Positions 5,247 to 47,887 of a stretch of 55,428 nucleotides of DNA are shown piece by piece. The DNA lies in contig CAZDXN010000003.1 in assembly GCA_964509695.1 (NCBI GenBank), forward strand, positions 1 to 55,428. Reading direction: 5' to 3'. The translations under genes and the position numbers were made by a program. Numbering within the stretch: the first letter of the stretch is position 1; each line of letters begins with the position of its first letter. This DNA is from an uncultured Pseudomonadales bacterium (lineage in GTDB: Bacteria > Patescibacteriota > Microgenomatia > UBA1400 > MFAQ01). The notes beneath the pieces were generated by a model. That model had not been told where the DNA came from. It saw only the letters and a program-made list of their open reading frames with translations, and ran no database searches.

Positions 5247-5484
5247 ATTTGGAGATGGGGTTTATTCCGAGCATCCACAGGACGCTTTCTTTTTTGTAGC
5301 GACGGTCGCCGCGGGAGTTGATGCGGATGGCGGGGAGCTTGCCACGCTTGCCCCAGCGCTTGATGGTGAGGGTGGAAACGCGCAGAAGAGTGGCGACTTC
5401 GGAGACGGTCAGCAGGTCGGGGAGGTTGGCGAGATTGACTTCTTGCTTGCCAGCAGGCGGGTCTTTTTTTTCGTTATTGTCCAT
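5245..5484 (-). CDS. Helix-turn-helix DNA-binding protein (MerR/excisionase-like HTH_17)
   Basis: LLTVSEVATLLRVSTLTIKRWGKRGKLPAIRINSRGDRRY. Confidence 0.9.
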   Translation of the reverse strand: MDNNEKKDPPAGKQEVNLANLPDLLTVSEVATLLRVSTLTIKRWGKRGKLPAIRINSRGDRRYKKESVLWMLGINPISK

Positions 5485-5533: not shown

Positions 5534-7642
5534 TTGAAGATGGGAGACATGTGGTTAAATGAGAGTATGTCAGTGGGTGATGAAAGAGATCCGGAAGTTA
5601 TACAGGTTGGTTCTGGTTTGGTGCGAGTTGAAGCGGGTTTGGTGTTTGATAAAGAAGCTGAATTAAGGAAGACGGTTCTGGCTGAATTGTTGCGCTTAAA
5701 AGTAGTCTCAATTGATGAAAGTCGATTACCTGGCGGCATTATCGTTGATAATCTTAATTTCTTTCGGGGTAAATCGATGGCGAAAGACTCGGATTCGGGT
5801 GAAGATTTGACTGTGTTTGAAGTAATGGAACGGGTCCCTGCGCCAATGAAAAACGGATTGGGAGGTCAAGACTCACAGAAAAATTACTATCACGTCTTTC
5901 GGGACCAGATGGTGGCGACGGAGGAGGATCTAAAGAATGGAGTTGGTGCGAGAGAGATGTTTTTTACCTTGAACGACGCTGCGGATTTGAAAAACCCTGG
6001 TCGATTGAGAGACTATAAGGGGAGGTTTTACTTACTTCTGTCAGAGTTGGGAGGAGAATTTGACGTGAGAAATAATTTTCAGCCGACCAAGAATGAGGGT
6101 TTCGATTCTGGAGTGGATTCTTTTGCGGCCAACGTTTTGGCGATGATATATATTTTGGGTGAAGGAGAACGTGATGAAGACGGGGCGCTTTGGGTAAATA
6201 AGACAAGTGGTGATAGTGCGGAAACACAGAAATTGTCCGGCAGCTGGTTGGCAAGAATGGGTTTTAAATCGTATAGTGGTTTGAAGTGGAGGGATCAACC
6301 GAGAGAGTTGATTGCCAGATACGGCAAAAGTATACCTAATGGAATGTTGAGTGCCGAGGATTTTTCCGACAGAACAAGAGAAAAAATGATCGTAGGCACT
6401 AACGGTCAATTGGTGGTTGAGAATACTAGGATATTTTTTGGACGCAATCGCCTGGGTTACCAAGCGGTCAAAATTTCTAGTGACGGAACGTATGTATTAT
6501 TGAGTCCTGCTGATGCAAAAGGCCAGAGGGCGGTTGACGGGGTGTTCAGAGCCGGTCGGGTGGGGGGAATAATAACGCGACCCAATGTGGTCGAGGGGAA
6601 AGTAATCGGTATGAGGGGGGGGAGTTATCAGGAACGAAAATTACAACCTAGGATAGTAATTCGGCGATATGACGGAGAAGGGAAGGTCCATGCTTGGAGG
6701 GTTGACAGTAAGGTTGCCGCTAGCGGACTACTGAAGCTAAGAGAACGTTTGAAGAAAATCGATCCTACGGTATTACCAAAATTGGATTCGTTACCGTATG
6801 AGAGGCAGCTTTTTTTACTTCACGGTTACATGCAGTTGAATGAGGTTGACAGAGGGAAGTTTGAGGGTGGTTTGGTCAGATGGTCCTCTACCCAGATTGA
6901 GGCAAAATCATATTTGGCTCAGTATAGCGGTTTGGCGACAGTGACCGAGGCGGGTCAAGTTGACGCCAGTTATTGTAAAACAGTCGGACTCTTGCGTAAC
7001 TTTCGACATGTGGTTGAGGGCGAGATAGGTGATGACAGCGAGCCACAAAATCGGTCGCTAATTGAGTTTATAGCTAGGATTACCGAGAGTGTGGCATTTC
7101 GGACGGGGACACTCTTAAGTAAGGTAACCGTTGAGAATGAAGAGGTGGTTCGGGCTGAAATGGATAAATTAAATGGTTTGCTATTGGCGATGGAGTCTTC
7201 GGTGGTGGATTTTGACAAAAAGAATGGATTGAGAAAGACAGCCATATTACGGGACGATAAGGGAGTTGTCTCTAGTATCACGGTTCATCAAAAATTTGGA
7301 TCTCAAGCTGGTGCGGATGAATTGTTTATTACATTTCGACCGGAAAGAAATGATGGCTTAGTAACCAAAGGGGGTGGGCATCCCAGAATTGGTATGACGT
7401 TTAGAAATACTACGGGGAGTTTTAATTTGCGAGTTGACCTAGACAAAAATGGTCTTTCGGTGGATGTTGGTAGTCATAGCGGTGAATTTGCCGGACAAAT
7501 GGCTAAGGCTGGCTTGACACACTATACATATGGAATTATTGACCCGGGTTATCAGAGCCTATTTGGTGCCTACGTTAAGAGGCTGGCTCAGATTTGGGGA
7601 GTTTCTGAATCCACGTGGACACGATCTCGCGGTGTTCAGTAG
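5534..7642 (+). CDS. Hypothetical protein (702 aa)
   Basis: Long uninterrupted ORF with normal amino-acid composition; no family recognised. Confidence 0.8.
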   Translation: MKMGDMWLNESMSVGDERDPEVIQVGSGLVRVEAGLVFDKEAELRKTVLAELLRLKVVSIDESRLPGGIIVDNLNFFRGKSMAKDSDSGEDLTVFEVMERVPAPMKNGLGGQDSQKNYYHVFRDQMVATEEDLKNGVGAREMFFTLNDAADLKNPGRLRDYKGRFYLLLSELGGEFDVRNNFQPTKNEGFDSGVDSFAANVLAMIYILGEGERDEDGALWVNKTSGDSAETQKLSGSWLARMGFKSYSGLKWRDQPRELIARYGKSIPNGMLSAEDFSDRTREKMIVGTNGQLVVENTRIFFGRNRLGYQAVKISSDGTYVLLSPADAKGQRAVDGVFRAGRVGGIITRPNVVEGKVIGMRGGSYQERKLQPRIVIRRYDGEGKVHAWRVDSKVAASGLLKLRERLKKIDPTVLPKLDSLPYERQLFLLHGYMQLNEVDRGKFEGGLVRWSSTQIEAKSYLAQYSGLATVTEAGQVDASYCKTVGLLRNFRHVVEGEIGDDSEPQNRSLIEFIARITESVAFRTGTLLSKVTVENEEVVRAEMDKLNGLLLAMESSVVDFDKKNGLRKTAILRDDKGVVSSITVHQKFGSQAGADELFITFRPERNDGLVTKGGGHPRIGMTFRNTTGSFNLRVDLDKNGLSVDVGSHSGEFAGQMAKAGLTHYTYGIIDPGYQSLFGAYVKRLAQIWGVSESTWTRSRGVQ

Positions 7643-8414
7643 CCGTATTTTCCCAGAGAATCTCGAACAGATCGGAAAAGGTGGCACTGATCGGAACACT
7701 GTCGATAATAGTTGAGATAATTTTGCCTTTGAGGGAGGTAATGGCTACTTTTGAGCCATAGACGATAATTTGTGAGGGAAGGAGGTACTTGGGGTTTTGG
7801 GTGATATGTCTTTCGACGAGCCTATCTTGGTCGTGAAATAGGTAGTTATTTTTGGTGTCGTCTTCTAGGGGAGTAATGGTGCGGGTATGGATATCCAACT
7901 TTATTTGAGCTCTTATTTGTTCATTGATGATTGAGTTTAATTCTTGGTTTTTGTCGTCTAAGACTGAACGGAAAAGGAGAAGATTTTTGGCTAATTTGTT
8001 TATGTCCTTGTACGTTTGTTTTATCCCCTCCAGCCCTTCAAATGAGCTAATTATCGGTCTGATTTCGGTCAGACGGTATGCGCTCTGGAGGTCGGGGAGG
8101 ATGTTTTCGAGATTGGTTTTGGCGGCTTTGGCCTGAAGCTGGATTTGCTCGGAGAGGTCGAGGAGGATGTCTGGTGAATTGGGGGTGAAAGTCGAGGCTT
8201 TGCCCGCCTTTGGCGAGGCATCGCCGGCGAGGCTGGATTTGACCAGCCCGAGTTTGGCAAGCTCCTGACTGACGGTGTAGACGTAGGTTCTTTTGACATT
8301 GGTGGACTTGGCTAGCTGGCTGGCAGATTGGGGTCCGTGGCGGAGGAGGGAGAGATAGATACTTGTCTGGTCGGCGCTCAAATTGAGGCTTTGAAGAAGT
8401 TCTTCCGGTTTCAT
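7575..8414 (-). CDS. TrmB family transcriptional regulator
   Basis: N-terminal wHTH (IYLSLLRHGPQSASQLAKSTNVKRTYVY), FEGLEGIKQ and PLD-like QIIVYGSKVAI; TTGACT-17-TATAGT promoter. Confidence 0.88.
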   Translation of the reverse strand: MKPEELLQSLNLSADQTSIYLSLLRHGPQSASQLAKSTNVKRTYVYTVSQELAKLGLVKSSLAGDASPKAGKASTFTPNSPDILLDLSEQIQLQAKAAKTNLENILPDLQSAYRLTEIRPIISSFEGLEGIKQTYKDINKLAKNLLLFRSVLDDKNQELNSIINEQIRAQIKLDIHTRTITPLEDDTKNNYLFHDQDRLVERHITQNPKYLLPSQIIVYGSKVAITSLKGKIISTIIDSVPISATFSDLFEILWENTATEHREIVSTWIQKLPKSEPAS

Positions 8415-8486
8415 CTACTTCTACTATATGTAAATACTTTCTGACAGTCAAGAGGTGGTTGAGGCTATATTTACTGTCAGGGGGAC

Positions 8487-8515
8487 TTGACAAAGCCCAT
8501 AACATATGTTATATT
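8487..8515 (+). promoter_or_regulatory. Sigma70-type promoter with a palindromic operator in the spacer
   Basis: TTGACA (8487-92), 17 bp, TATATT (8510-15); palindrome ATAACATATGTTAT at 8499-8512. Confidence 0.75.
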
Positions 8516-8521
8516 ACCGAT

Positions 8522-8897
8522 TAATTGATGATTTCTGAATCGTCAAAGTACATTTACATTCGAGTCGGACAACTGATCTTTAGCAATAAGGATCAAAAGG
8601 GGAAAGTTCTTAGCCTTGGTAGGTTGAGAGCAAATACCGCGAAAGTTGCTAATTGACCCACGGGTCGAGGTGCGACGATCGAGACTAATTCAACCGGAAG
8701 CCAATCTGCTTCTGACTCGGGGGAACCCGATCATCAGGAAAGAGAAGCCGAAGGTTACCACAGACACAACAATCCCGCCTCATCTTTTCCTGTCCCTATC
8801 CTACCTGTCCATTTCGCGCAAGCGATTTTAGGTGAGAAGAGATTATGGCGAAGATGGTGGGATAAAGAGCATGAGAAATCGTACTTTTTATCCCACG
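8522..8897 (+). ncRNA. Candidate structured ncRNA (~375 nt), family unknown
   Basis: Follows a strong promoter; several hairpins with GNRA/CACG loops; long-range helix 8560-69 with 8711-20; final hairpin 8857-69 with 8884-96; no SD-led ORF. Confidence 0.55.
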
Positions 8898-8929
8898 GTA
8901 TATCCGGCGCGAATGTTTCTCGTTATCCT

Positions 8930-8957
8930 TGTCATTCCGGACTTGATCCGGAATCTA
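8930..8957. repeat. Half palindromic element TGTCATTCCGGACTTGATCCGGAATCTA
   Basis: Same class as 189-214, 1862-1890 and 13173-13201. Confidence 0.85.
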
Positions 8958-9138
8958 TATAAATAATTTCCCAAAAAGATTGGTTGCCCGATTCGAACAG
9001 TACCTTAAAAAGTCAATTTTCTCTTTTCTTCTTTCGGAAGAACCCGGGCCGCGTGTTATCTGCGCGCCCGGGATTCTCCGGAAAAATCGATGTTTTTTAA
9101 TGCCCCAGCTGGGGCGGCCGCTAAGGAGGCGGTTTTTG

Positions 9139-11418
9139 ATGAAAGCATACAATTTTGTTCGCGGCCATTTGACAGATGGCCTCGCATTAACGACCGATGA
9201 AAAACTCGGTCGAATTGTATTTCTCGGCGAGGTCGGCCGGGGCCGACGCTATGAGAAAGTGGCGTTGGACCGGCATAACCCGCCGGCGGTGGTAGATGGA
9301 CGCGTGCTGGATTGCCAGCCGCGTAAAGTCACCCTCCAGCCGAAAGACGGGAAGCCCGAGAAGATTTTTTACGTTCTCGAGCAGTCCCGCGGTGGTTCGG
9401 ACGCAGTTTTGGTCCGAATTTTTACCGAGGGGACGTACACAAAGAACACCCGTGGGCGTTGGCAAACGATTGCGGGGAATCCCGAGACCATCATCTCGGG
9501 GTACGGCGCCTACGGCGACGCCGGCCGAATTGGCAACTGGGATGATGGCCTCGTCCTCATGCGCCCGGGAGACGTAGTGAAAGTCACGTTATCCGGGGGC
9601 TCGAAGTTTGAGCCGTATGCGATTTGGTTCAATGATGGCGCCCCCCAATGCGCCACTTGGAAAGAGTACGAGACCCTGACCGCGGTCACTTCGGCGCAAG
9701 CCGAGGCGTCCGGGTCGGGTCTCAAAATTCTTTTCGGCCAAATGCCAACCTTCACTTGGTCTCACGGCAAAGTTGAGCCGGGGATCAAGTTGGCCAAGGG
9801 CCTGACGGGCCCGATGGTGTCGTTAGGTGAATCCGGCCGGGGGCGCACCTTGACCGAGGTGCCTCTGGTCAACTACCCCGTCGAGGGGAAGTTGATCGAG
9901 GCGGCCGTAGCCGTCCTCAAAGAGGAAACCAAACCTTCCCGTTATCCCGGGGGTGAGCCGGAGACGAAAGTCTCTTACGGCTTGACCCAAGGGGCCGCGA
10001 AGGAAGCTGGTTCTGGTTTCCTAGTCAAAGTCTCGAGCTCGTGGGTTTATACCCGTGGGTCGAGTCCGGAGATCTCTGCCTGGAAAGGTAACTCGACTTT
10101 TCTGGCGGAAGGCCGGGGGGCTGAAGGCGATGCTGGCCGGATTTATGATTGGCCGGAAATCCTCGTTGTCCTCCATGAGGGTGACGTTCTTTTTATCCGT
10201 CCGGAAGGCGGATACAAAGTTCGTTCATACACCCTCTTCGTAAAAAACGGTCAGTTGAAAACTGAGCCGTGGGTGACCTGGAAGGTTGAAGACGCGAAGC
10301 GCGACCCCGAGTTCTATGTCGCTAAGGGAACTGCGCCTTCGGCGGGGCTTGTGCCCGCCGAGTGGATTGGGAGGGTCGTTTCCGTCCAGGTCCTCGAGAA
10401 TAGTCGCGATCAAGGCGATCATCTCGAAGAAAAACAGGTCGGTGAGGTCATTTCCATTTCGCCCTTGGTGTTGAATCTGGGGTGGGACGGTCAGGACCGC
10501 TACGACGTGACGATCAATCAGGCGACCTGGGTCCGCCTCGAGAGGGACAAGAAAGTAGTCCGACTCGGAGGCGAAGCCGCCGAAAAGCGGCAGTCGCTTC
10601 GGGCGAGGTTGGAACAGTTGATGGTCGAGGCTGGACAGGCCTTGGCCAAAAGCTACACCTCTCTGGCCAGCGAGGAACTGCGGAAGGAATTGTACGACGC
10701 TTCCCGCAGTTATTACTGGACGCTCGACACCCTGCCCACCGAGGGATGGGGGAATACGATCAGTGCTTTCGTCGAAAAGGCCGAAGCGACCCTGAAGCAA
10801 TTCCGGGAAGTTGAGGCCGAACTTCAAGCCCGCGAAGCGGCCGGAAAGTCGGGTGAAATGATGCCCGATTACCGCGTCCGCCTTGGTGGGTCGAAAAATG
10901 GCCGAGCCGTGGAAACGGCTTGGGCTATTTTGCCGGATGGTTCGACTGTGACCCCGAAAGGGGATTACGGCGAAGCCATTTTCGGCGATTTGACCCCGAC
11001 GGCGCTCGTAGTGACTCATCTCGAGTCCAACTACGGCTACCGCTACTCGGAGGCCTGGATCGTCGCTCATCTGCCCGCCAAGGTGACCGAGGCCCAGAAG
11101 GCCAAGGTTGTCGAGTTGGGGCAAACCGCCCACAAGTACTTCGTGGGCGGCAAGACCGGCTGGGACCTCGCCGAAAAAGAGGTCTACTTCCAGACCGCCT
11201 ACGACCGGGACTTCCGGACGGAGGAGGAGTTAGCGGCCAATCGCGAGATGACGGCCGCCTTCCCCATTGATTTGGGGATCTGGAAAGTAATGCGTTCCTG
11301 CGAGTCCGGGAAGCGCACGGTCTGGGCAGAACGCCGGACCGAGGGCGATTCGAATCGCCCGAGTGAGGTGATGGCGATGGCCTTCAAAGCGGCCGTGGCC
11401 AAGCGCCTCGATGACTAG
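9139..11418 (+). CDS. Hypothetical protein (759 aa) with a tandem-duplicated ~200-aa domain
   Basis: AAGGAGG SD before ATG 9139 (preferred over the track's GTG 8980); GxGAxGDAGRIxxW motif twice, 204 codons apart. Confidence 0.85.
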   Translation: MKAYNFVRGHLTDGLALTTDEKLGRIVFLGEVGRGRRYEKVALDRHNPPAVVDGRVLDCQPRKVTLQPKDGKPEKIFYVLEQSRGGSDAVLVRIFTEGTYTKNTRGRWQTIAGNPETIISGYGAYGDAGRIGNWDDGLVLMRPGDVVKVTLSGGSKFEPYAIWFNDGAPQCATWKEYETLTAVTSAQAEASGSGLKILFGQMPTFTWSHGKVEPGIKLAKGLTGPMVSLGESGRGRTLTEVPLVNYPVEGKLIEAAVAVLKEETKPSRYPGGEPETKVSYGLTQGAAKEAGSGFLVKVSSSWVYTRGSSPEISAWKGNSTFLAEGRGAEGDAGRIYDWPEILVVLHEGDVLFIRPEGGYKVRSYTLFVKNGQLKTEPWVTWKVEDAKRDPEFYVAKGTAPSAGLVPAEWIGRVVSVQVLENSRDQGDHLEEKQVGEVISISPLVLNLGWDGQDRYDVTINQATWVRLERDKKVVRLGGEAAEKRQSLRARLEQLMVEAGQALAKSYTSLASEELRKELYDASRSYYWTLDTLPTEGWGNTISAFVEKAEATLKQFREVEAELQAREAAGKSGEMMPDYRVRLGGSKNGRAVETAWAILPDGSTVTPKGDYGEAIFGDLTPTALVVTHLESNYGYRYSEAWIVAHLPAKVTEAQKAKVVELGQTAHKYFVGGKTGWDLAEKEVYFQTAYDRDFRTEEELAANREMTAAFPIDLGIWKVMRSCESGKRTVWAERRTEGDSNRPSEVMAMAFKAAVAKRLDD

Positions 11419-11427
11419 TGTCTTTCT

Positions 11428-11468
11428 GGGGTGGCGGGTTTGTAACCCGCCACCCCAATTCTATTTTT
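11428..11468 (+). terminator. Intrinsic terminator-like hairpin
   Basis: GGGGTGGCGGGTT-TGT-AACCCGCCACCCC followed by AATTCTATTTTT. Confidence 0.7.
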
Positions 11469-11537
11469 CTGAAAGAAGAGGAGAGAATGTGTTCGATTGA
11501 AGTAGTTTCGTTTTGCCTGCCTGTGAAGCTTGACCCT

Positions 11538-11576
11538 GGACAGGAATCAGGTGACGCAGGCGGATAAGACGAAATT
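11538..11576 (+). repeat. 39-bp direct repeat, copy 1
   Basis: GGACAGGAATCAGGTGACGCAGGCGGATAAGACGAAATT. Confidence 0.9.
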
Positions 11577-11795
11577 AATGCCCCAGACGTAATAGTACCT
11601 TTCGATTTTATGTTCGAAGGGGATGTTGAGACGCGATAGGGTGAGTCCTGTTGCACTTTGGTAGGTATCAATAAGCCCCCAAACCAGATTGATGGATTCG
11701 ATATAAATGTTGCCCCATTTTATTTGATCGTCTTCGATACCATCGGGGATTGGGAAGACGTCTTGATCAATATCTTGAGATTCTCTTGAGGTCAT
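11547..11795 (-). CDS. Hypothetical protein (82 aa)
   Basis: Overlaps the stop of the upstream ORF (ATGA); its own stop codon is supplied by the 39-bp repeat. Confidence 0.5.
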   Translation of the reverse strand: MTSRESQDIDQDVFPIPDGIEDDQIKWGNIYIESINLVWGLIDTYQSATGLTLSRLNIPFEHKIERYYYVWGINFVLSACVT

Positions 11796-12196
11796 TTCAT
11801 CTCATCTAGGGGGAGATCTATCTCGTCAGCGACCTGCTGGAGTTGATTCCCCGAAAAGATTCGGAAGTGGGGTTGGTCGAGTTGCGATTCTCTCAGTTGT
11901 TGAATGGTTTTTTGCCGTTTTTCGCCTTTGGTTTCAAGTTCTTCAGTAAGCAACCTGTAGGTGACTTCGTCAAAGTCCTTGGTTATTTCTCGAGTTAGCT
12001 CGAGAAATTTCTCCATAAGGGGATAATCTATGACATCAATTTTGGATAAATCAAGACCAGAAACGTTACTTGGAAGTTTTGGGATCTTTTGGTCTTCGAG
12101 CTGTTCTATGACCTTTGATGGTCTAACCGCGGCGGATCGATGGACAGTGGAGATAATGTCACTGATGTCATCAATTGCGTGGTCGGGACGGCTCAT
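11792..12196 (-). CDS. Hypothetical protein (134 aa)
   Basis: TATATT -10 is 6 nt before the ATG; protein-like composition. Confidence 0.7.
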   Translation of the reverse strand: MSRPDHAIDDISDIISTVHRSAAVRPSKVIEQLEDQKIPKLPSNVSGLDLSKIDVIDYPLMEKFLELTREITKDFDEVTYRLLTEELETKGEKRQKTIQQLRESQLDQPHFRIFSGNQLQQVADEIDLPLDEMK

Positions 12197-12231
12197 GGTT
12201 TGAATATAACATCAAATAGGGCCATAATTTC

Positions 12232-12270
12232 GGACAGGAATCGGGTGACGCAGGCAGGTAAGACGAAATT
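12232..12270 (+). repeat. 39-bp direct repeat, copy 2
   Basis: GGACAGGAATCGGGTGACGCAGGCAGGTAAGACGAAATT. Confidence 0.9.
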
Positions 12271-12286
12271 GGGGTATAAAGATAGT

Positions 12287-12790
12287 ATGAGAGAAGCTCA
12301 AGAGAGGATGACGATGAGTCCAAAGGAAAGAATTGATGGTCTGGTTCCGTCTGAGAAGAGGAAGCTAACACATACAATTGTGCATGAAGCGGGGCATGCC
12401 GCAAAGGCAATTTTATTGGGACTAAGAGTTTCCGGATACGTTATTGGAGATTATGGGTGGGGAGACCAGGGTGCTTATAAAAAACCGAAAGGAGTCGTAG
12501 ATGGAAAAGTAATTTTAAACCAAGCTATAGGTGAGACGGACTGGGAAAGGAAATTGAAAATGTCTGCAGCCAGTGGTGCGGCAGCAGAATTGGTGTATTT
12601 TGGATATATTAACTCCACTGCAGGTCAACAAAAGGTTGACCGTTTGACTGGGAATTTTCGTTCCTATAGAGAGATTGATGAAATGGCCAATAAAATTGCT
12701 GATGAACTTGAAGCGAGTGAGATTTTTTATGAGTGTATCCGAAGGATGGCGAGAGGCGAGGCCCTTGATGATTTGAGTGTGAAAACCTGA
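12287..12790 (+). CDS. Stand-alone M41 (FtsH-type) metallopeptidase-like domain protein
   Basis: IVHEAGHA zinc motif and SGAAAELVYFG third-ligand helix; TATAAA is 6 nt before ATG 12287. Confidence 0.75.
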   Translation: MREAQERMTMSPKERIDGLVPSEKRKLTHTIVHEAGHAAKAILLGLRVSGYVIGDYGWGDQGAYKKPKGVVDGKVILNQAIGETDWERKLKMSAASGAAAELVYFGYINSTAGQQKVDRLTGNFRSYREIDEMANKIADELEASEIFYECIRRMARGEALDDLSVKT

Positions 12791-12794
12791 CCTT

Positions 12795-12865
12795 GGACAG
12801 GAATCGGGTGACGCGGGCGGACCTGCTGAAAGCCAAGGCATTCAGGCGGGCGGGTAAGACGAGAT
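12795..12865 (+). repeat. 39-bp direct repeat, copy 3, interrupted by a 33-bp hairpin insertion
   Basis: GGACAGGAATCGGGTGACGCGGGCGG[ACCTGCTGAAAGCCAAGGCATTCAGGCGGGCGG]GTAAGACGAGAT. Confidence 0.88.
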
Positions 12866-12913
12866 GGAGTGGGTTTTTGACAAATGGGATGGGGGTGGCT
12901 ATATTATCGGATA

Positions 12914-13381
12914 ATGAGCGAGAGAATAAGAAGATTTAAGGCGGGGGAAGCGGGGAAAAGTCTGATGTCGTTGATGGCGGGGGAAATTGGTTTTGGGGAA
13001 CCGTTTGAGGATGTCAGTTCTCAGTTGGAGGCGTTGGACGAGATACAAAGGAAGTCCTTGGTCCTACTGGTGGCCTGTGACAGAATTTATGGATTTTTTG
13101 AGAATCGGGTTGGGATGGCCAATGGGCCACGTTTGGTGAAGCTGGTTCGCGACTTGGCCGGTGATCTTCATCTGTCATTCCGGCCCCCGAGCCGGAATCT
13201 AGACGAAATCGATGTCTCCAAAGAAGAGGCGAGAGCGTATTATGATGAGCTCGTGCGAATAGGCGCGATGGAATATATGGGCGAACTTGGTAGAAAGGAT
13301 GTTTTTTGCACGATTTGGGAATGTATCAACAAGATGGTGGGCGAGGAGGAATCAACTTTGGAAGAAGCCTTGCGACCTTAG
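12914..13381 (+). CDS. Hypothetical protein (155 aa) with an in-frame palindromic half-element
   Basis: TTGACA-17-TATATT promoter 8 nt before ATG 12914; TGTCATTCCGGCCCCCGAGCCGGAATCTA at 13173-13201 reads LSFRPPSRNL. Confidence 0.75.
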   Translation: MSERIRRFKAGEAGKSLMSLMAGEIGFGEPFEDVSSQLEALDEIQRKSLVLLVACDRIYGFFENRVGMANGPRLVKLVRDLAGDLHLSFRPPSRNLDEIDVSKEEARAYYDELVRIGAMEYMGELGRKDVFCTIWECINKMVGEEESTLEEALRP

Positions 13382-14410: not shown

Positions 14411-14461
14411 GGTAATACTGATTTGACAGGTAGTATTACTTTGGGATACAGTAGTATTACT
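14411..14461 (+). promoter_or_regulatory. TA promoter with repeated operator boxes
   Basis: TTGACA 14423-28 and TACAGT 14447-52; GTAGTATTACT direct repeats at 14430-40 and 14451-61. Confidence 0.65.
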
Positions 14462-14728
14462 ATGGTGGGAACTTCGACAGTTACTTCAAAGGGGCAGGTG
14501 ACGATACCTATGTCTATTCGGGAGTATTTGGACATTAAGGCTGGCAATAAGGTTTATTTTGAAGCTGTATTGAACCCTAGAAGTGTGAAAGTAAGTAAGT
14601 CGTCTGGCAGTACTGTGGATGAGATTGCCGGATCACTTCATTCTGACGTCGGCTATGTGGACTTAAATGTAGTTCGCGAAAAGGTAGCCAAGGACATAGC
14701 TGCATATTATGCCAAAAGGTCGAGATAG
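14462..14728 (+). CDS. AbrB/MazE/SpoVT family antitoxin (VapB-like)
   Basis: STVTSKGQVTIPMSIREYLDIKAGNKVYF. Confidence 0.92.
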   Translation: MVGTSTVTSKGQVTIPMSIREYLDIKAGNKVYFEAVLNPRSVKVSKSSGSTVDEIAGSLHSDVGYVDLNVVREKVAKDIAAYYAKRSR

Positions 14729-15119
14729 AATTGTTTGTGTCGATACAAATGTTGTTTTGAGGCTGATTTTGGCTGATGATGAGGTTTTGCATCGAAGGGC
14801 TAGGGAAATATTTAAAGAAGGTGAGATCGGAAGGGCAAAGATTTACATTGACGAAGTGGTTTTGGCAGAGTGTGTTTGGGTTTTGAAAAGTTTTTATAAG
14901 AAATCCCGGGAGCAGATTTGTGAAGTGCTTTCAAAACTATTATCGCTAAAGTACATGGCTAACCCAAGAGGGAAAATGGCGAGAGAGTCTTTGTTGATTT
15001 ACAAAACAACGAGTCTTAGCCTTGAAGATTGTTGGCTCATGGTATTGTCAAAGAGTCAAAATTACGATTTTCAGACGTTTGACGTCAAGTTACGGAAACG
15101 AGCGGAGAGGGGGAAGTAA
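14709..15119 (+). CDS. PIN-domain toxin (VapC-like)
   Basis: VDTNVVLR, VLAECVWVL, SLEDC and FQTFDVKL PIN acidic residues; overlaps the antitoxin. Confidence 0.92.
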   Translation: MPKGRDRIVCVDTNVVLRLILADDEVLHRRAREIFKEGEIGRAKIYIDEVVLAECVWVLKSFYKKSREQICEVLSKLLSLKYMANPRGKMARESLLIYKTTSLSLEDCWLMVLSKSQNYDFQTFDVKLRKRAERGK

Positions 15120-16312: not shown

Positions 16313-16699
16313 TTATATCACGTTTTTGGCGAGACTGCTCAAGATTCTAGTTTTGCCGAAGTAGCCCATTTTGAGGAGTTGTTTGTCATGGGTGAGAAAA
16401 TAATCGCAATCGGCCTCGATCGCTGATTGGAGCTGAATGTTGTCCTCCAAATCGTCGGTGGGTCCGACCAAGGATCTTTCTTCCAGCAGAGTTCTGGTCA
16501 AATCTACCATTTCAAATTGAGATATTGTGGCATTAGAATTCGGGTTTGGCACTCTTTTTTTCTCGACGTAGAACAAAATATGTATAGATAGAGGCGAGAT
16601 ATACACATGATGTTGATCCAAGTCTGACGCGAGGATTTTGTTTCCTCTTCCTTCAATAAGATCGATAAAGATATTAGTGTCAAGAAAGACTTTGGCCAT
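16313..16699 (-). CDS. PIN-domain toxin (VapC-like)
   Basis: VFLDTNIFID, DLEDNIQ and YFLTHDKQL. Confidence 0.92.
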   Translation of the reverse strand: MAKVFLDTNIFIDLIEGRGNKILASDLDQHHVYISPLSIHILFYVEKKRVPNPNSNATISQFEMVDLTRTLLEERSLVGPTDDLEDNIQLQSAIEADCDYFLTHDKQLLKMGYFGKTRILSSLAKNVI

Positions 16700-21964: not shown

Positions 21965-22900
21965 TTAGAGGCTGGAGAGGTCAAGTTTTACGGATGGGGT
22001 TTGGTTGGCGGTAAGATAGGCAGTGGTGATTTTGGTCAAGCCGATTTCTTTGAGAAGTGCGGTGAGATTGCCGGTCAGTTCGTCAACCTTTTGACTGGTT
22101 TTGCCAAGGCTGACGTGGATGATGGGGAACTTCGGCTCGGTTTTGTAGGTAATCGTAGCCCCGGCGGAGAGCTGTTTGGCCCGGCCTTCTGGGTCGGCAG
22201 TGACTGTGCCGCTCTTGGGATTGGGCATCAGGCCTTTGGGGCCTAGAATCTTGGCGTAGCGAGCTAGTTTGGGCATGTCTGCCGGGGTAGCCAGAAGAAC
22301 ATCGAAGTTAAATTCATTGTTGTTTAGGGCGGTGACGGTTTTGTCGGAGAATATTTCGACGCGAACATTCTTGCCGGTAGAGAAGGGGGTTTTAACTTCA
22401 CCGCGAAGACCGGTGTCGATGACGTTTAGATGAAGGTCGATGGTTCTAGTTCCGCCGGCGAGGGAGATTAGCTTTTCGAGAGCGACTTTTGGAGCCAGAA
22501 CTTCATTACTCTTGATTTTTTTAGCGAGGATTTTGTAGCGCTTCGAGCGGCCGTAGATGTGGCTGGGGTACTTGGCGAAGTGGCTGGTGGAGATTACGGG
22601 TGCGTCATCCTCGCGAACGCGGGGATCCATACTATCTGTATAGATTCCCGATCGGGTCGGGAATGACAAAGTAGATTGCTTCGTGGGTACACTCCCTCCA
22701 GAGGCGGGCTTTGGCGCAATGACGGGGGAGTAGGTGACGTGAACTTTTTCCAGATCGGCATCGGAAAGGCCAAGGGCGAGGAGTTCGCCGTCAGTTTTGG
22801 CGGTGAGCTGTTCGGGCTTGACGCGCTTCTCACGAAGAACCTTAGCGATATTTTCCGGCAAATCTTGATATAGTTCTTTCCAATTCGTTCTAGTTGCCAT
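21965..22900 (-). CDS. rplA: 50S ribosomal protein L1 with a ~115-aa N-terminal extension
   Basis: RGEVKTPFSTGK, FDVLLATP, ILGPKGLMPNPKSGTV; directly downstream of rplK. Confidence 0.95.
   Translation of the reverse strand: MATRTNWKELYQDLPENIAKVLREKRVKPEQLTAKTDGELLALGLSDADLEKVHVTYSPVIAPKPASGGSVPTKQSTLSFPTRSGIYTDSMDPRVREDDAPVISTSHFAKYPSHIYGRSKRYKILAKKIKSNEVLAPKVALEKLISLAGGTRTIDLHLNVIDTGLRGEVKTPFSTGKNVRVEIFSDKTVTALNNNEFNFDVLLATPADMPKLARYAKILGPKGLMPNPKSGTVTADPEGRAKQLSAGATITYKTEPKFPIIHVSLGKTSQKVDELTGNLTALLKEIGLTKITTAYLTANQTPSVKLDLSSL
22604..22723. repeat. 120-bp palindromic elements in-frame inside rplA
   Basis: GTCATCCTCGCGAACGCGGGGATCCAT..TAGATTCCCGATCGGGTCGGGAATGACA plus AGATTGCTTCGTG..GCGCAATGAC. 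Confidence 0.85.
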
Positions 22901-23423: not shown

Positions 23424-23867
23424 TTATACCACAGCCGAGTAATCTTTTAGGAGTATTGGCAATGGGGAAAAGTTTATTTTGCGAACCAACTTTTCATCTG
23501 AGGTAATTAGACCTATGTTGTTGACGTGGGAGAGGGTGACGTAGGCGCTGTCATAAACCGAGATTTGGAACTTGGTCGCGTTTTGGAGACACTCGGGGAG
23601 AAGATCGTCCATTGGAAAGGTCTCCGGTTTGGATTTTACCAGTAGGTGAAGTAATGATAGTCCCTTGTTTGTGTCGATTCGGTGTCTGGAGATAGCGCTT
23701 TTGATTCCGTTTGCTATTTCATAAGACCAGAGTGATGGCGCTATCAGAACGATTTTCCCAGAAAGATAGTCTTTTTGGAGGCTGAGGGACTGGTTCGAAT
23801 ATATTTCGTCTTCGAAAATCCACTTTAAACAGGTAGAGGCATCAACGACATATGTTGGCTTGGTCAT
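23424..23867 (-). CDS. PIN-domain toxin (VapC-like)
   Basis: YVVDASTCLKW, YEIANG, SVYDSAYV and LITSDEKL. Confidence 0.92.
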   Translation of the reverse strand: MTKPTYVVDASTCLKWIFEDEIYSNQSLSLQKDYLSGKIVLIAPSLWSYEIANGIKSAISRHRIDTNKGLSLLHLLVKSKPETFPMDDLLPECLQNATKFQISVYDSAYVTLSHVNNIGLITSDEKLVRKINFSPLPILLKDYSAVV

Positions 23868-24521: not shown

Positions 24522-24833
24522 TTAGAGAATCCTGACTCCAGTTCGTCTGATTTCGTTGGCGAGATCGTTGTTTGGATCGTTGAATTCTTCGATAGACATG
24601 GGGTGTGGTTCGATATTTTCGTTCATATCACTGGCGATGAGCATGAGTTTGGTCATCTCCGCAATTCGGTCTTTGCCGTAATTGGGTGAAACAATACATA
24701 CATCGTAGTCACTCCATTTGTGACCAGTTCCTTTAGCCCTTGAGCCAAAAAAATAAACTCCGTTTATGTTTGGTTCCGAGTTTTTTAGTCGGCTGAGATA
24801 TCGATTGATGATTTGAGAGTCTTGATTGTTCAT
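24522..24833 (-). CDS. Minimal nucleotidyltransferase (MNT)
   Basis: YFFGSRAKG..WSDYDV and IEPHP. Confidence 0.92.
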   Translation of the reverse strand: MNNQDSQIINRYLSRLKNSEPNINGVYFFGSRAKGTGHKWSDYDVCIVSPNYGKDRIAEMTKLMLIASDMNENIEPHPMSIEEFNDPNNDLANEIRRTGVRIL

Positions 24834-25216
24834 AAAAATGATCTAACCTTGTTGGCCAGATTCTGGCAAGTTCTTGTCCAGACTGAAGCGTATTCCTGAG
24901 TGGCTTTGTAATAGAATGATCGCTTGTAGTCGTCGTACCGCGCACTGATATTGAAGGAGGTAATTTCAATTAGCTGAGTGATTTCTTCTGGGGACAACTC
25001 TAAGTTGGTATTTTTGGAGAGAGTTTTTAGATCGTGAATTGATGGAACTTCTTTGTTATTTTTTGTAATTATCGCTTTAAGGAGTTTTTCAATTACTAGA
25101 TGCCAGAGAAAGAGACACCAGTCATATTTTCCCGAATCAAAAAGTTTTTGGGCTGCCTCTTCGTCGTTTTTTGCGCTATCGATCCAGTATTGTAGCTTTT
25201 CTTCTTGACTGACCAT
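24830..25216 (-). CDS. HEPN domain protein
   Basis: AQKLFDSGKYDWCLFLWHLVIEKLLKA, IHDLKTL and NISARY; paired with the MNT gene. Confidence 0.92.
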   Translation of the reverse strand: MVSQEEKLQYWIDSAKNDEEAAQKLFDSGKYDWCLFLWHLVIEKLLKAIITKNNKEVPSIHDLKTLSKNTNLELSPEEITQLIEITSFNISARYDDYKRSFYYKATQEYASVWTRTCQNLANKVRSFL

Positions 25217-46927: not shown

Positions 46928-47490
46928 AGGTTGATTGGCGAGAGGCCGTTTTCAGTTTCGCACAGGATTTGGCCCTTTTGTTCGATAATCCGGTCAGTGA
47001 AGAGGATGCCGTTGAGGTGATCGATTTCGTGCTGGATGTAGGCGGAGGAGACGTCACTGAATTCTTCAGTGACAGTTGACAGTTGACAGTTGACAGTTGA
47101 CAGTATGGGTATTTGGTATTGGAGTTTGATGGAGTAGGGACGGTCGACGAATCCCCAGATCTTGGGGATGGAGAGACAGCCTTCGAGCCAGCGGTCCTTC
47201 TTCTTTTTGTAGACGGAGCTAAGCATTTTCTGACTGATGGTGATGATTTCGGGGTTAATGAAGACCTTGGTGGTTTGTCTTTCCTCATCAAGGAGAATAA
47301 AGAGGCGTTTGTCGAGGCCAACTTGAGTGGCGGCCAGACCAACGCCCTTGGGATTGGTGGTGTGTTTGAGGATTTCTGCCATTTGGGCCACTTCTTTGGC
47401 GGTTTTCTTGTCCCAACCACGAATAGGCTTGGCCTTGTGCTTTAGGAATGAATGGGGTGTAGTCAGAATCTGCATATGGTCAGTTTTCAT
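46924..47490 (-). CDS. def: Peptide deformylase
   Basis: GVGLAATQVG, EGCLSIP and QHEIDHLNG; (GACAGTT)n insert at 47071-47105. Confidence 0.97.
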   Translation of the reverse strand: MKTDHMQILTTPHSFLKHKAKPIRGWDKKTAKEVAQMAEILKHTTNPKGVGLAATQVGLDKRLFILLDEERQTTKVFINPEIITISQKMLSSVYKKKKDRWLEGCLSIPKIWGFVDRPYSIKLQYQIPILSTVNCQLSTVTEEFSDVSSAYIQHEIDHLNGILFTDRIIEQKGQILCETENGLSPINL

Positions 47491-47887
47491 ACTCTTTTGG
47501 TGTTGTAGCTTTGCAGAAATTGTTTTTTAAAAGTTGTTTGTCCCAAGTGATAAGAGTGGCCTTGTTTAATTTGGTTGTGAGGGCAATAATTAGATCTGAA
47601 GTTTTTAGGGAAGACCGATTGGTTTTTAAGAAGGTGGCTAGGTCTTTAATGCTTTCCCTATTTATTTCCGAGAATTTCATCTGTGAAAAAATTTGGAATA
47701 TTTTTTCTAAATTTATAGCGCCATTTTGTCTTAAAATAACGACTACTTCTGCAGCTACTAAAGCTGGTAAAATTATTTGAGTGTTAGTTTGAGATATTTT
47801 TTGGAAAAATGATTTTGATTGGTGGGTGAGACCATCTTTCCCGAAATGAGAGATAAATACACAGGAATCAATGACGATTTTTTTCAC
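47480..47887 (-). CDS. PIN-domain toxin (VapC-like)
   Basis: IVIDSCVF, VAAEVV, KTSDLII and LITWDKQL. Confidence 0.9.
   Translation of the reverse strand: MKKIVIDSCVFISHFGKDGLTHQSKSFFQKISQTNTQIILPALVAAEVVVILRQNGAINLEKIFQIFSQMKFSEINRESIKDLATFLKTNRSSLKTSDLIIALTTKLNKATLITWDKQLLKNNFCKATTPKEYEN

Follow-up and report, generated by a model that had tools for sequence, protein, structure and literature searches.

Repeat copies and small genes beside rplL

The 55,428-nt stretch of contig CAZDXN010000003.1 that was analyzed here as a whole (the window) carries three direct copies of a short repeat, R1 to R3, which alternate with small genes next to the ribosomal protein gene rplL. From left to right, the layout is an imperfect hairpin, H, of which R1 is part, a 236-amino-acid (aa) gene, R2, a gene encoding a protein with an HExxH motif, R3, and a 155-aa gene (Table 1). 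We describe the anatomy of this locus in the window and in its relatives and propose that the repeats are probably the stranded halves of a single conserved hairpin. The initial annotation, made from the letters of the window, had placed the three repeats at 11538, 12232, and 12795 with periods of 694 and 563 bp, and all of these values proved to be correct. They are the plus-strand starts of a 20-nt core, GGACAGGAATCRGGTGACGC, and no other site in the window matched this core with three or fewer mismatches. The chance expectation for the core was 0.01, and none of 100 shuffled sequences reached three matches. All three copies lie inside 1.3 kb, and the stretches between them (655 and 524 bp) bear genes.

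The repeat has a 39-nt unit that holds two direct GG(A)CAGG(A/T)AA subrepeats about 21 nt apart. The ends of the unit, GGACAGG... and ...GACGAAATT, are mutually noncomplementary and match no integron core motif. R3 is the unit plus a 33-nt insert, which sits between duplicated GGCGG motifs; the nested hairpin and the GGCGG duplication that had been annotated in copy 3 were both present. The resulting 72-nt long form is the form found in most relatives (related contigs carrying the same locus are given L numbers, and metagenome runs are given X numbers). A 35-nt match to the insert (L006 positions 5907 to 5941) was observed in a contig of run X10 at approximately 15x depth. The flanks on both sides of this match were unrelated, which suggests that the insert may be a separate small palindromic insertion. 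Copies 1 and 3 share the extension TGACCYT, which corresponds to the top of the 5' arm of H. As annotated, the TGA of the ORF at 12287 to 12790 is located within this extension, and the stop of the minus-strand ORF at 11547 to 11795 is located within R1.

The view that the copies separate unrelated genes stands to the extent that discrete small modules lie at the joints. The two ORFs of module 1, which had been listed as two orphans of 82 and 134 aa, are instead halves of one 236-aa gene. They overlap by ATGA, and compared with L019 and L022, in which the gene is intact (235/236 aa), about 31 codons have been deleted and the frame is broken. At the R1 junction, the final codon and the stop of the gene (native end, GIS*) have been removed, and the reading frame now continues for 10 extra codons into the repeat. 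This family is small, with about four members at an E value of ≤1e-10 among 1.8 billion representatives. In L006, the 236-aa gene has decayed further, to two fragments. The ORF of module 2 contains the motif HEAGH, and its stop codon falls in the 5'-arm remnant of R3. It had been called an M41-like peptidase, an assignment that we could not sustain: the protein had no relative among 5.8 billion proteins, gave a weak Pfam match to M50B (E value of 3e-4), and had no match in PDB, and its predicted model had a predicted local distance difference test (pLDDT) score of 39 and was unusable. PADLOC reported nothing for the window modules. The last gene, also listed as an orphan, belongs to a conserved family whose members are annotated as Candidatus Collierbacteria.

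A conserved hairpin and its left-truncated copies

R1 is the loop and 3' arm of H, and the loop, GGAC, forms the first four bases of the repeat. Folded as plus-strand RNA, H has a predicted energy of -39.3 kcal/mol (z = -4.78), and none of 200 shuffled sequences folded as well. The minus strand gave a z score of -0.81; the fold is strand specific in the window because of G-U pairs. The L017 orthologue of H scored even lower as RNA (z = -6.48). As DNA, H had a z score of -2.3, and the L017 hairpin folds as DNA on both strands. The two hairpins have 26 pairs in common, of which 3 are changed on both sides, 6 are changed on one side, and none is broken. H is a conserved hairpin with compensatory changes. 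Among the three window copies, R1, taken with its upstream arm, is the only one that forms the hairpin, and R2 and R3 alone fold no better than shuffled sequences (z = -0.75 for R2). In both the window and L017, H lies inside an 83-nt block 3' of a conserved trailer motif. This block is missing from L022, in which the intact end of the 236-aa gene adjoins the trailer. The trailer pairs with a leader, and the pair encloses a different gene in each strain: the window has an 812-aa gene there, L017 has a 90-aa gene, and L022 has a 113-aa gene. Judged from these sequences, the leader/trailer bracket itself appears to behave like a cassette frame, and H, which is associated with the bracketed units in these genomes, is a candidate for a new structured element. 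Rfam contained no family for the repeat at the gathering threshold or at an E value of ≤10; a match to mir-214 (E value of 1.8) was dismissed as a generic hairpin match.

A structure of this kind could be kept as a cis element, that is, as an RNA 3'-end, stability, or processing structure, as an insulator, or as a site for a shared regulator, such as the HTH_17 protein encoded at the left border of the locus, and it would then travel with the modules or be selected between them. The stability of H, its compensatory changes, its strand specificity in the window, and the paired direct subrepeats of the unit are consistent with such a role. So is the finding that R copies are approximately 91% identical between lineages, which makes them as conserved as rplJ/rplL DNA (89 to 92%, compared with 80% for the 155-aa gene). 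However, the truncated copies cannot form the hairpin (z of about 0), and remnants decay to as little as 12 nt. Placement also is inconsistent, since copies may lie 3' of convergent genes, separate divergent promoters, or precede a complete promoter. Close relatives have the same flanking genes and the same promoters without any repeat, and a search of RNA-seq runs for the region returned no match. We regard retention as cis elements as rather improbable.

Two narrower roles were examined and rejected. A promoter role for R3 was discarded because the 155-aa gene has a complete promoter downstream of R3, which also is present in relatives without R. A coding role was considered because a frame beginning DRNRVTQA... 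is open through R2 into the peptidase-like ORF and the 33-nt indel is in frame, but the frame does not stay open at either R1 or R3, and the only match to a profile of the encoded peptide was a spurious ORF of the contig itself.

Comparison of copies 2 and 3 with approximately 15 copies in related metagenome contigs revealed that they all are H shortened from the left at differing points. The right end is invariant in all copies (...GACGAAAT(T), i.e., GAAAT(T)) and is sharp in about 10 different contexts. The complete 5' arm (37 nt) is kept in R1 and in the corresponding hairpin of L017, H', and in both the window and L017 the complete hairpin follows the conserved trailer, with the further copies being left truncated at variable points. 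At least 15 nt of the 5' arm (GTGAAGCTTGACCCT) is kept in the L027 and L034 copies, which lie 3' of HepT; 8 to 17 nt is kept in R3, which lies 3' of the peptidase-like ORF; 8 to 14 nt is kept in the L017 copy at 1560 to 1604, 3' of a 250-aa gene; and 8 nt is kept in the L009/L028-type copies. R2 and the L006 copy keep none of it. The partial copies of L006, L009, and L023 comprise the lower 3' arm only, and the remnant at L017 positions 2533 to 2545 keeps 12 nt. The flanks bear out these assignments. To the left of R2, only a 7-nt match (AATTTCG) to the base of the 5' arm was found, and the rest could not be aligned to the arm. The left flank of R3 aligned to the 5' arm with a score of 11, compared with a mean of -2.7 (standard deviation, 4.4) for shuffled sequences. 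The 5' arm of H supplies TGA codons in two frames, and such codons terminate the peptidase-like ORF, the 250-aa gene, and HepT. ORF stops coincide with the repeats because the ORFs of the modules extend into the 5'-arm remnant and meet its TGA codons.

The copies also differ in allele. The internal copy of L017 is identical to window R1 at 36 of 39 positions (92%) and to the complete hairpin of L017 itself at 29 of 39 positions (74%). Likewise, R3 bears a 33-nt insert like that of the long copy (R-long) of the L006/L009 lineage, and R1 and R2 are without it. This cross-identity and the mixture of long and short forms indicate that the copies are different imported alleles and not local duplications.

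Table 1. Coordinates and descriptions of the features of the locus and its surroundings
Feature	Position	Strand	Description
HTH_17 gene (excisionase/MerR-like), left border	5248-5484	-	79 aa; tblastn: L012 100% identical, L015 and L020 87-95% identical
Hypervariable zone	5537-12874		7.3 kb; from pairwise blastn of L012, L015, L017, L020, L022, L024, and L025 against the window, and gene maps
Terminator-like perfect hairpin	11427-11457	+	3' of the 812-aa gene; inverted repeat, 14-nt arms, 100% complementary
Trailer arm	11464-11487	+	Inverted repeat complementary to the leader at 9019-9042
Leader/trailer in relatives	L017 80-190 and 665-690; L022 156-200 and 675-692
H, complete hairpin	11503-11577	+	75 nt, imperfect; 5' arm 11503-11537, loop GGAC 11538-11541, remainder 3' arm
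R1, copy 1	11538-11576	+	39-nt unit; loop and 3' arm of H
Module 1, split 236-aa gene	11547-12196	-	82-aa ORF 11547-11795 and 134-aa ORF 11792-12196
R2, copy 2	12232-12270	+	39-nt unit; H cut exactly at the loop, 0 nt of 5' arm
Module 2	12275-12790	+	-10 box TATAAA 12275-12280, then HExxH metallopeptidase-like orphan ORF 12287-12790
R3, copy 3, long form	12778-12866	+	5'-arm remnant about 12778-12794 (TGTGAA..CTGACCTT); loop and 3' arm 12795-12866, made up of the 5' 26 nt of the unit (12795-12820), the 33-nt hairpin insert (12821-12853), and the 3' 12-13 nt (12854-12866)
Promoter of 155-aa gene	12877-12905	+	TTGACA, 17 nt, TATATT; ATG 8 nt further
155-aa gene, right border beside rplL	12914-13381	+	22 relatives, 50-81% identity
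Toxin-antitoxin-type genes	14423-15119, 16313-16699, 23424-23867, 24830-25216, 47480-47887		MazE and PIN pair, three more PIN, one HEPN

The same copies could have arisen by the repeated insertion of a small mobile palindrome resembling a miniature inverted-repeat transposable element (MITE), a repetitive extragenic palindromic (REP) element, or a Rickettsia palindromic element (RPE), with the modules being incidental. H is palindromic and is an 83-nt block insertion relative to L022, the 33-nt insert occurs in another context in one metagenome, and the genome carries dispersed palindromes that insert even in frame in genes. One of these is a 38-nt palindrome (13164 to 13201; TTCCGGC..GCCGGAA) that lies in frame in the 155-aa gene and encodes LSFRPPSRNL; it is missing from the L006/L009 homologues, and a 100% identical copy is found elsewhere in L012. 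Contig depth over this palindrome was 212x, compared with 36x in its flanks. This 6-fold excess shows that the palindrome is a dispersed element and that the depth method does detect dispersed short repeats. The depth over R1 to R3, on the other hand, equaled that of the flanks in the two source groundwater runs, X1 and X2 (36x and 17x), and the assembled contigs of these runs that matched R3 were limited to the window's own contig and one weak 44-nt match. In 596 Gb of genomes and in the Joint Genome Institute (JGI) metagenome collection, true repeat matches were found in L006 and L009 only, both at the syntenic locus; the remaining matches were single chance occurrences, which in the genomes fell within unrelated genes (in Bifidobacterium, a planctomycete, and a Caldilineaceae genome). 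Two scans of a viral contig collection returned no matches, and a blastn search of plasmids also was negative. All further copies belonged to contigs carrying this locus (L017/L018, L023, and L026 to L035). Within the window and the collections and contigs searched, the repeat is thus specific to this locus and is not a dispersed REP-like element. Since, in addition, the three copies in 55 kb are all within 1.3 kb and most copies are half-elements, a mobile palindrome is a very improbable explanation.

Two classes of known site also were considered for the repeat and set aside. No tRNA or transfer-messenger RNA fragment resembles it, which excludes an att duplication at a tRNA end, and it has no 11-6-11 dyad arms of a dif/Xer-like site. 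The sign of the GC skew is constant across the window; the skew is positive in each 1-kb bin, whatever the gene orientation. ARAGORN reported a 96-nt tRNA-Leu(aag) at 22369 to 22464, antisense inside the rplA ORF (21965 to 22900) and below the Rfam tRNA threshold. This call may be false and caused by palindromic insertions.

Exchange of modules at the locus

Homology between the window and seven relatives ends at approximately position 5536 and resumes at 12872 to 12935, so that R1 to R3 occupy the right-hand end of a hypervariable zone of 7.3 kb. With repeat-free relatives, homology begins at 12875, as observed in the L012 alignment and in L012-type contigs. The right border is formed by the 150-aa gene family to which the 155-aa gene belongs and which adjoins rplL and rplJ in every relative. 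The content of the zone differed in every relative examined. It consists of one 397-aa gene in L012 to L014, an 88-aa gene in L015, and an 88-aa gene with PIN/AbrB in L020. L017 carries the methyltransferase-like 250-aa gene, AbiEi/Eii, and MNT/HepT; L024 carries a DUF4143 ATPase; and L028 and L029 carry an insertion sequence (IS)-type transposase and AbiE. In L019 and L022, the zone holds the 236-aa gene only, divergent from the 150-aa gene and with no repeat between them. In some strains, the flanking genes are joined directly without a repeat. Gene order is therefore not invariant, and a comparison of cassette content and order, as the initial annotation had suggested, reveals differences in both related and co-occurring strains.

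The transposase-type gene is present in some strains only, where it lies between the HTH_17 gene and R-long (L028, 1637 to 2956; L029, 1596 to 2930). It encodes a protein of 439 to 444 aa with N-terminal HTH_29/HTH_32/HTH_28 transposase-type domains and an SPQAKGRVER motif, features which suggest an IS481-like DDE enzyme. L027 has two PIN/AbrB modules, one on each side of a block composed of MNT/HepT, R-long, AbiE, and a partial copy (R-partial). Toxin-antitoxin (TA)-type genes also are scattered in the window outside the zone, even between ribosomal protein and nusG genes (Table 1).

The AbiE module provides the clearest case of exchange. Between L006 and L009, identity is 99.7% across a stretch of 1,034 nt whose ends coincide exactly with the first base of R-long and the last base of R-partial. 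Beside the module, their 150-aa genes are 94.9% identical and their left flanks are unrelated. An exact look-up of the 218-aa AbiE ORF identified the identical toxin in 10 further contigs, with three left contexts (a remnant of the 236-aa gene, a core-gene promoter with or without IS, and MNT/HepT) and two right contexts (PIN/AbrB or the promoter of the 150-aa gene). Five of the six possible combinations were seen, and the AbiE form is present in roughly 20 runs. Modules at this locus thus are reassorted in natural populations. The AbiE pairs of L017 and L006 are 75% identical and have opposite orientations relative to the adjacent R.

Alternative alleles also coexist. In three runs, a form with a 725-nt PIN/AbrB module was found together with a form that has 36 nt in its place; one breakpoint of this replacement is exactly at the right end of R-partial, and the other is inside the promoter of the 150-aa gene. 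An L012-type strain coexists at half depth in the samples holding the window, and the loose end before 12875 is L012 sequence. Several joints lack the repeat altogether, namely, AbrB/150-aa promoter, HepT/150-aa promoter, and AbrB/MNT, and are located between -35 and -10 elements. Such repeat-free joints inside promoters are as expected from illegitimate joining.

Direct repeats that flank several unrelated, compact modules could denote a site-specific cassette system, either integron-like or growing by integrase-less accretion of mini-islands, in which an enzyme encoded elsewhere would act on circular modules and H would serve as an attI-like, possibly folded single-strand, primary site. The sharp conservation of the right boundary would be in line with this proposal, as would the location of ORF stops inside the repeat, which integron cassettes also show, and the occurrence of TA modules in both orientations, which is seen in chromosomal integrons. 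A module that is bounded exactly by R copies and nearly identical in diverged backgrounds would fit as well, as would the fact that H, an imperfect bulged palindrome, folds as DNA too. The details do not conform, however. Left boundaries and repeat extents differ from copy to copy, the full hairpin is present in one of the three window copies, and progressively decayed remnants occur. The orientation of the AbiE pair relative to R is reversed between L017 and L006, and the PIN/AbrB polymorphism is a replacement with one end only at R. No RYYYAAC/GTTRRRY cores and no dyad-symmetric core were found in the 39-nt unit; the absence of attC structure had been recognized from the start. So had the absence of a recombinase: a Pfam search of 48 window ORFs of at least 120 aa detected several PIN, HEPN, or MazE domains but no recombinase, integrase, or transposase domain. 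In the assembled contigs, no joints were observed. Because left boundaries vary, attC architecture is lacking, and these ORFs encode no recombinase, an integron-like system is unsupported, and we consider a site-specific system unlikely. What had been described as a cassette array or a series of recombination sites is accurate for the variable modules at the joints, but the repeats are unequal remnants of one hairpin, and many joints are repeat-free.

A variant of this idea is that H and its half-copies are sites of an undescribed, integron-free cassette-capture system in bacteria of the candidate phyla radiation (CPR), with a recombinase or nuclease from elsewhere, or cleavage of the hairpin, acting at the 3' base of folded H. 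Promoter-to-stop modules would then insert beside a complete site, and a functional analogue of attI/attC would have evolved independently in Patescibacteria. We think this quite doubtful.

Proposed sequential displacement at a recombination hotspot

The locus is a recombination hotspot in Candidatus Collierbacteria, at which small, self-contained modules, for the most part TA/defense-type pairs and orphans, are gained, displaced, and lost. The constant right end, the variable left truncations, the single complete copy at the left anchor, the heterologous remnants, and the repeat-free joints all fit sequential displacement. Our preferred explanation, to which we give slightly better than even confidence, is that the repeats are halves of one conserved hairpin that were stranded through such displacement and are not integron-like sites. 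H lies at the 3' end of the bracketed unit upstream. Incoming DNA of a related strain, presumably entering by transformation, would first recombine homologously on the left, in the core, the trailer, or H, in a RecA-type reaction. Its right end would then join illegitimately, perhaps through microhomology, inside the recipient's own H. The product would consist of a new complete H, a new module, the left-truncated old H, and the older module. Repetition of these events would stack truncated copies (R2, R3, R-partial, and the 12-nt remnant), with the right end kept and the left end differing, and ORFs running into a remnant would end at TGA codons supplied by the 5' arm. Joints may be drawn to H by the fragility of the palindrome, or H may simply offer noncoding space in which joints are tolerated. 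By this account, the window would be a record of at least two layers.

Several observations weigh against sequential displacement. The covariation in H rests on two distinct complete hairpins only. The 8-nt left boundary CTGACCYT recurs beside three unrelated sequences, a regularity greater than would be predicted for random joining. Furthermore, the right end of H has many different modules as its neighbors at a distance of 0 to 5 nt (GAAATT, GAAATTGGGG), and the displacement model leaves this proximity unexplained. Strong deletional streamlining, together with selection that preserves the hairpin, may account for it; every module at the locus is trimmed promoter to stop. Finally, microhomology at the joints was examined in one or two cases and was not clean. 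Where HepT is joined to H, the joint has GTGAA in common with both presumed parents.

Sequential displacement via homology-facilitated illegitimate recombination was proposed for the orphan immunity-gene arrays of the Vibrio cholerae type VI secretion system (T6SS) and for C-terminal displacement in Rhs and contact-dependent growth inhibition (CDI) systems (PMC5361080 and references 41, 42, 44, and 47 therein). As in those arrays, a conserved anchor is present on one side at our locus, new modules would enter beside the anchor and push older ones downstream, and fragments of the anchor precede the displaced modules. Both kinds of array are heterogeneous between close strains and have no dedicated recombinase, here none among the 48 window ORFs. 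The anchor fragment here is a noncoding hairpin, whereas in those arrays it is the 3' part of a toxin gene, and the modules here are unrelated TA/defense pairs and orphans rather than effector-immunity pairs of one system. The host also differs, being a CPR bacterium, and the mechanism suggested for it derives from comparative anatomy alone.

Several other systems resemble the locus in part. Integron cassette arrays, such as those with Vibrio cholerae repeats in chromosomal integrons, have sequence-conserved attC sites. Like the locus, they contain cassettes that are compact and unrelated to each other, some of them TA modules with promoters of their own, with a conserved repeat in between and a content that varies by strain; ORF stops inside the repeat and a complete copy that is an imperfect bulged palindrome are further shared features. 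Unlike them, the locus has no IntI among the window ORFs, lacks R''/R' core motifs, and consists mostly of half-sites with variable left ends, its cassettes are found in either orientation relative to the repeat, and many of its joints are repeat-free. Minimal mobile elements (MMEs) of Neisseria are exchanged between conserved flanking genes by homologous recombination in naturally transformable bacteria, and integration hotspots reportedly were analyzed by Oliveira et al. in 2017. In both cases, as here with the HTH_17 and 155-aa genes, conserved flanks enclose strain-specific content without mobility genes, and alleles coexist in one population; the classical cases, however, are clean allelic replacements with no stacked internal repeats. 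REP elements, bacterial interspersed mosaic elements (BIMEs), and Rickettsia-type palindromic elements also are imperfect palindromic intergenic hairpins downstream of a gene, but H is known at one locus only and is represented mostly by half-palindromes. The CRISPR comparison was rightly excluded at the outset, since the spacers here are 655 and 524 bp long and carry genes, whereas CRISPR spacers are unique, noncoding, and similar in length to their 25- to 50-bp repeats.

CPR genomes are tiny and contain few recognizable mobile-element enzymes, yet this locus beside rplJL turns over TA/defense modules rapidly, even within one aquifer sample. Comparison among strains gives a clear view of how cassettes stack without an integrase in CPR bacteria and also brings to light a small, conserved hairpin element. 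If sequential displacement is the correct explanation, the stranded half-hairpins would represent a stratigraphy of successive DNA imports, and competence together with one-sided homologous recombination would suffice to produce cassette arrays that look like integrons. This would caution against applying the label "integron-like" to repeat-delimited arrays by layout alone, and it would help to explain how defense repertoires diversify in episymbiotic CPR lineages.

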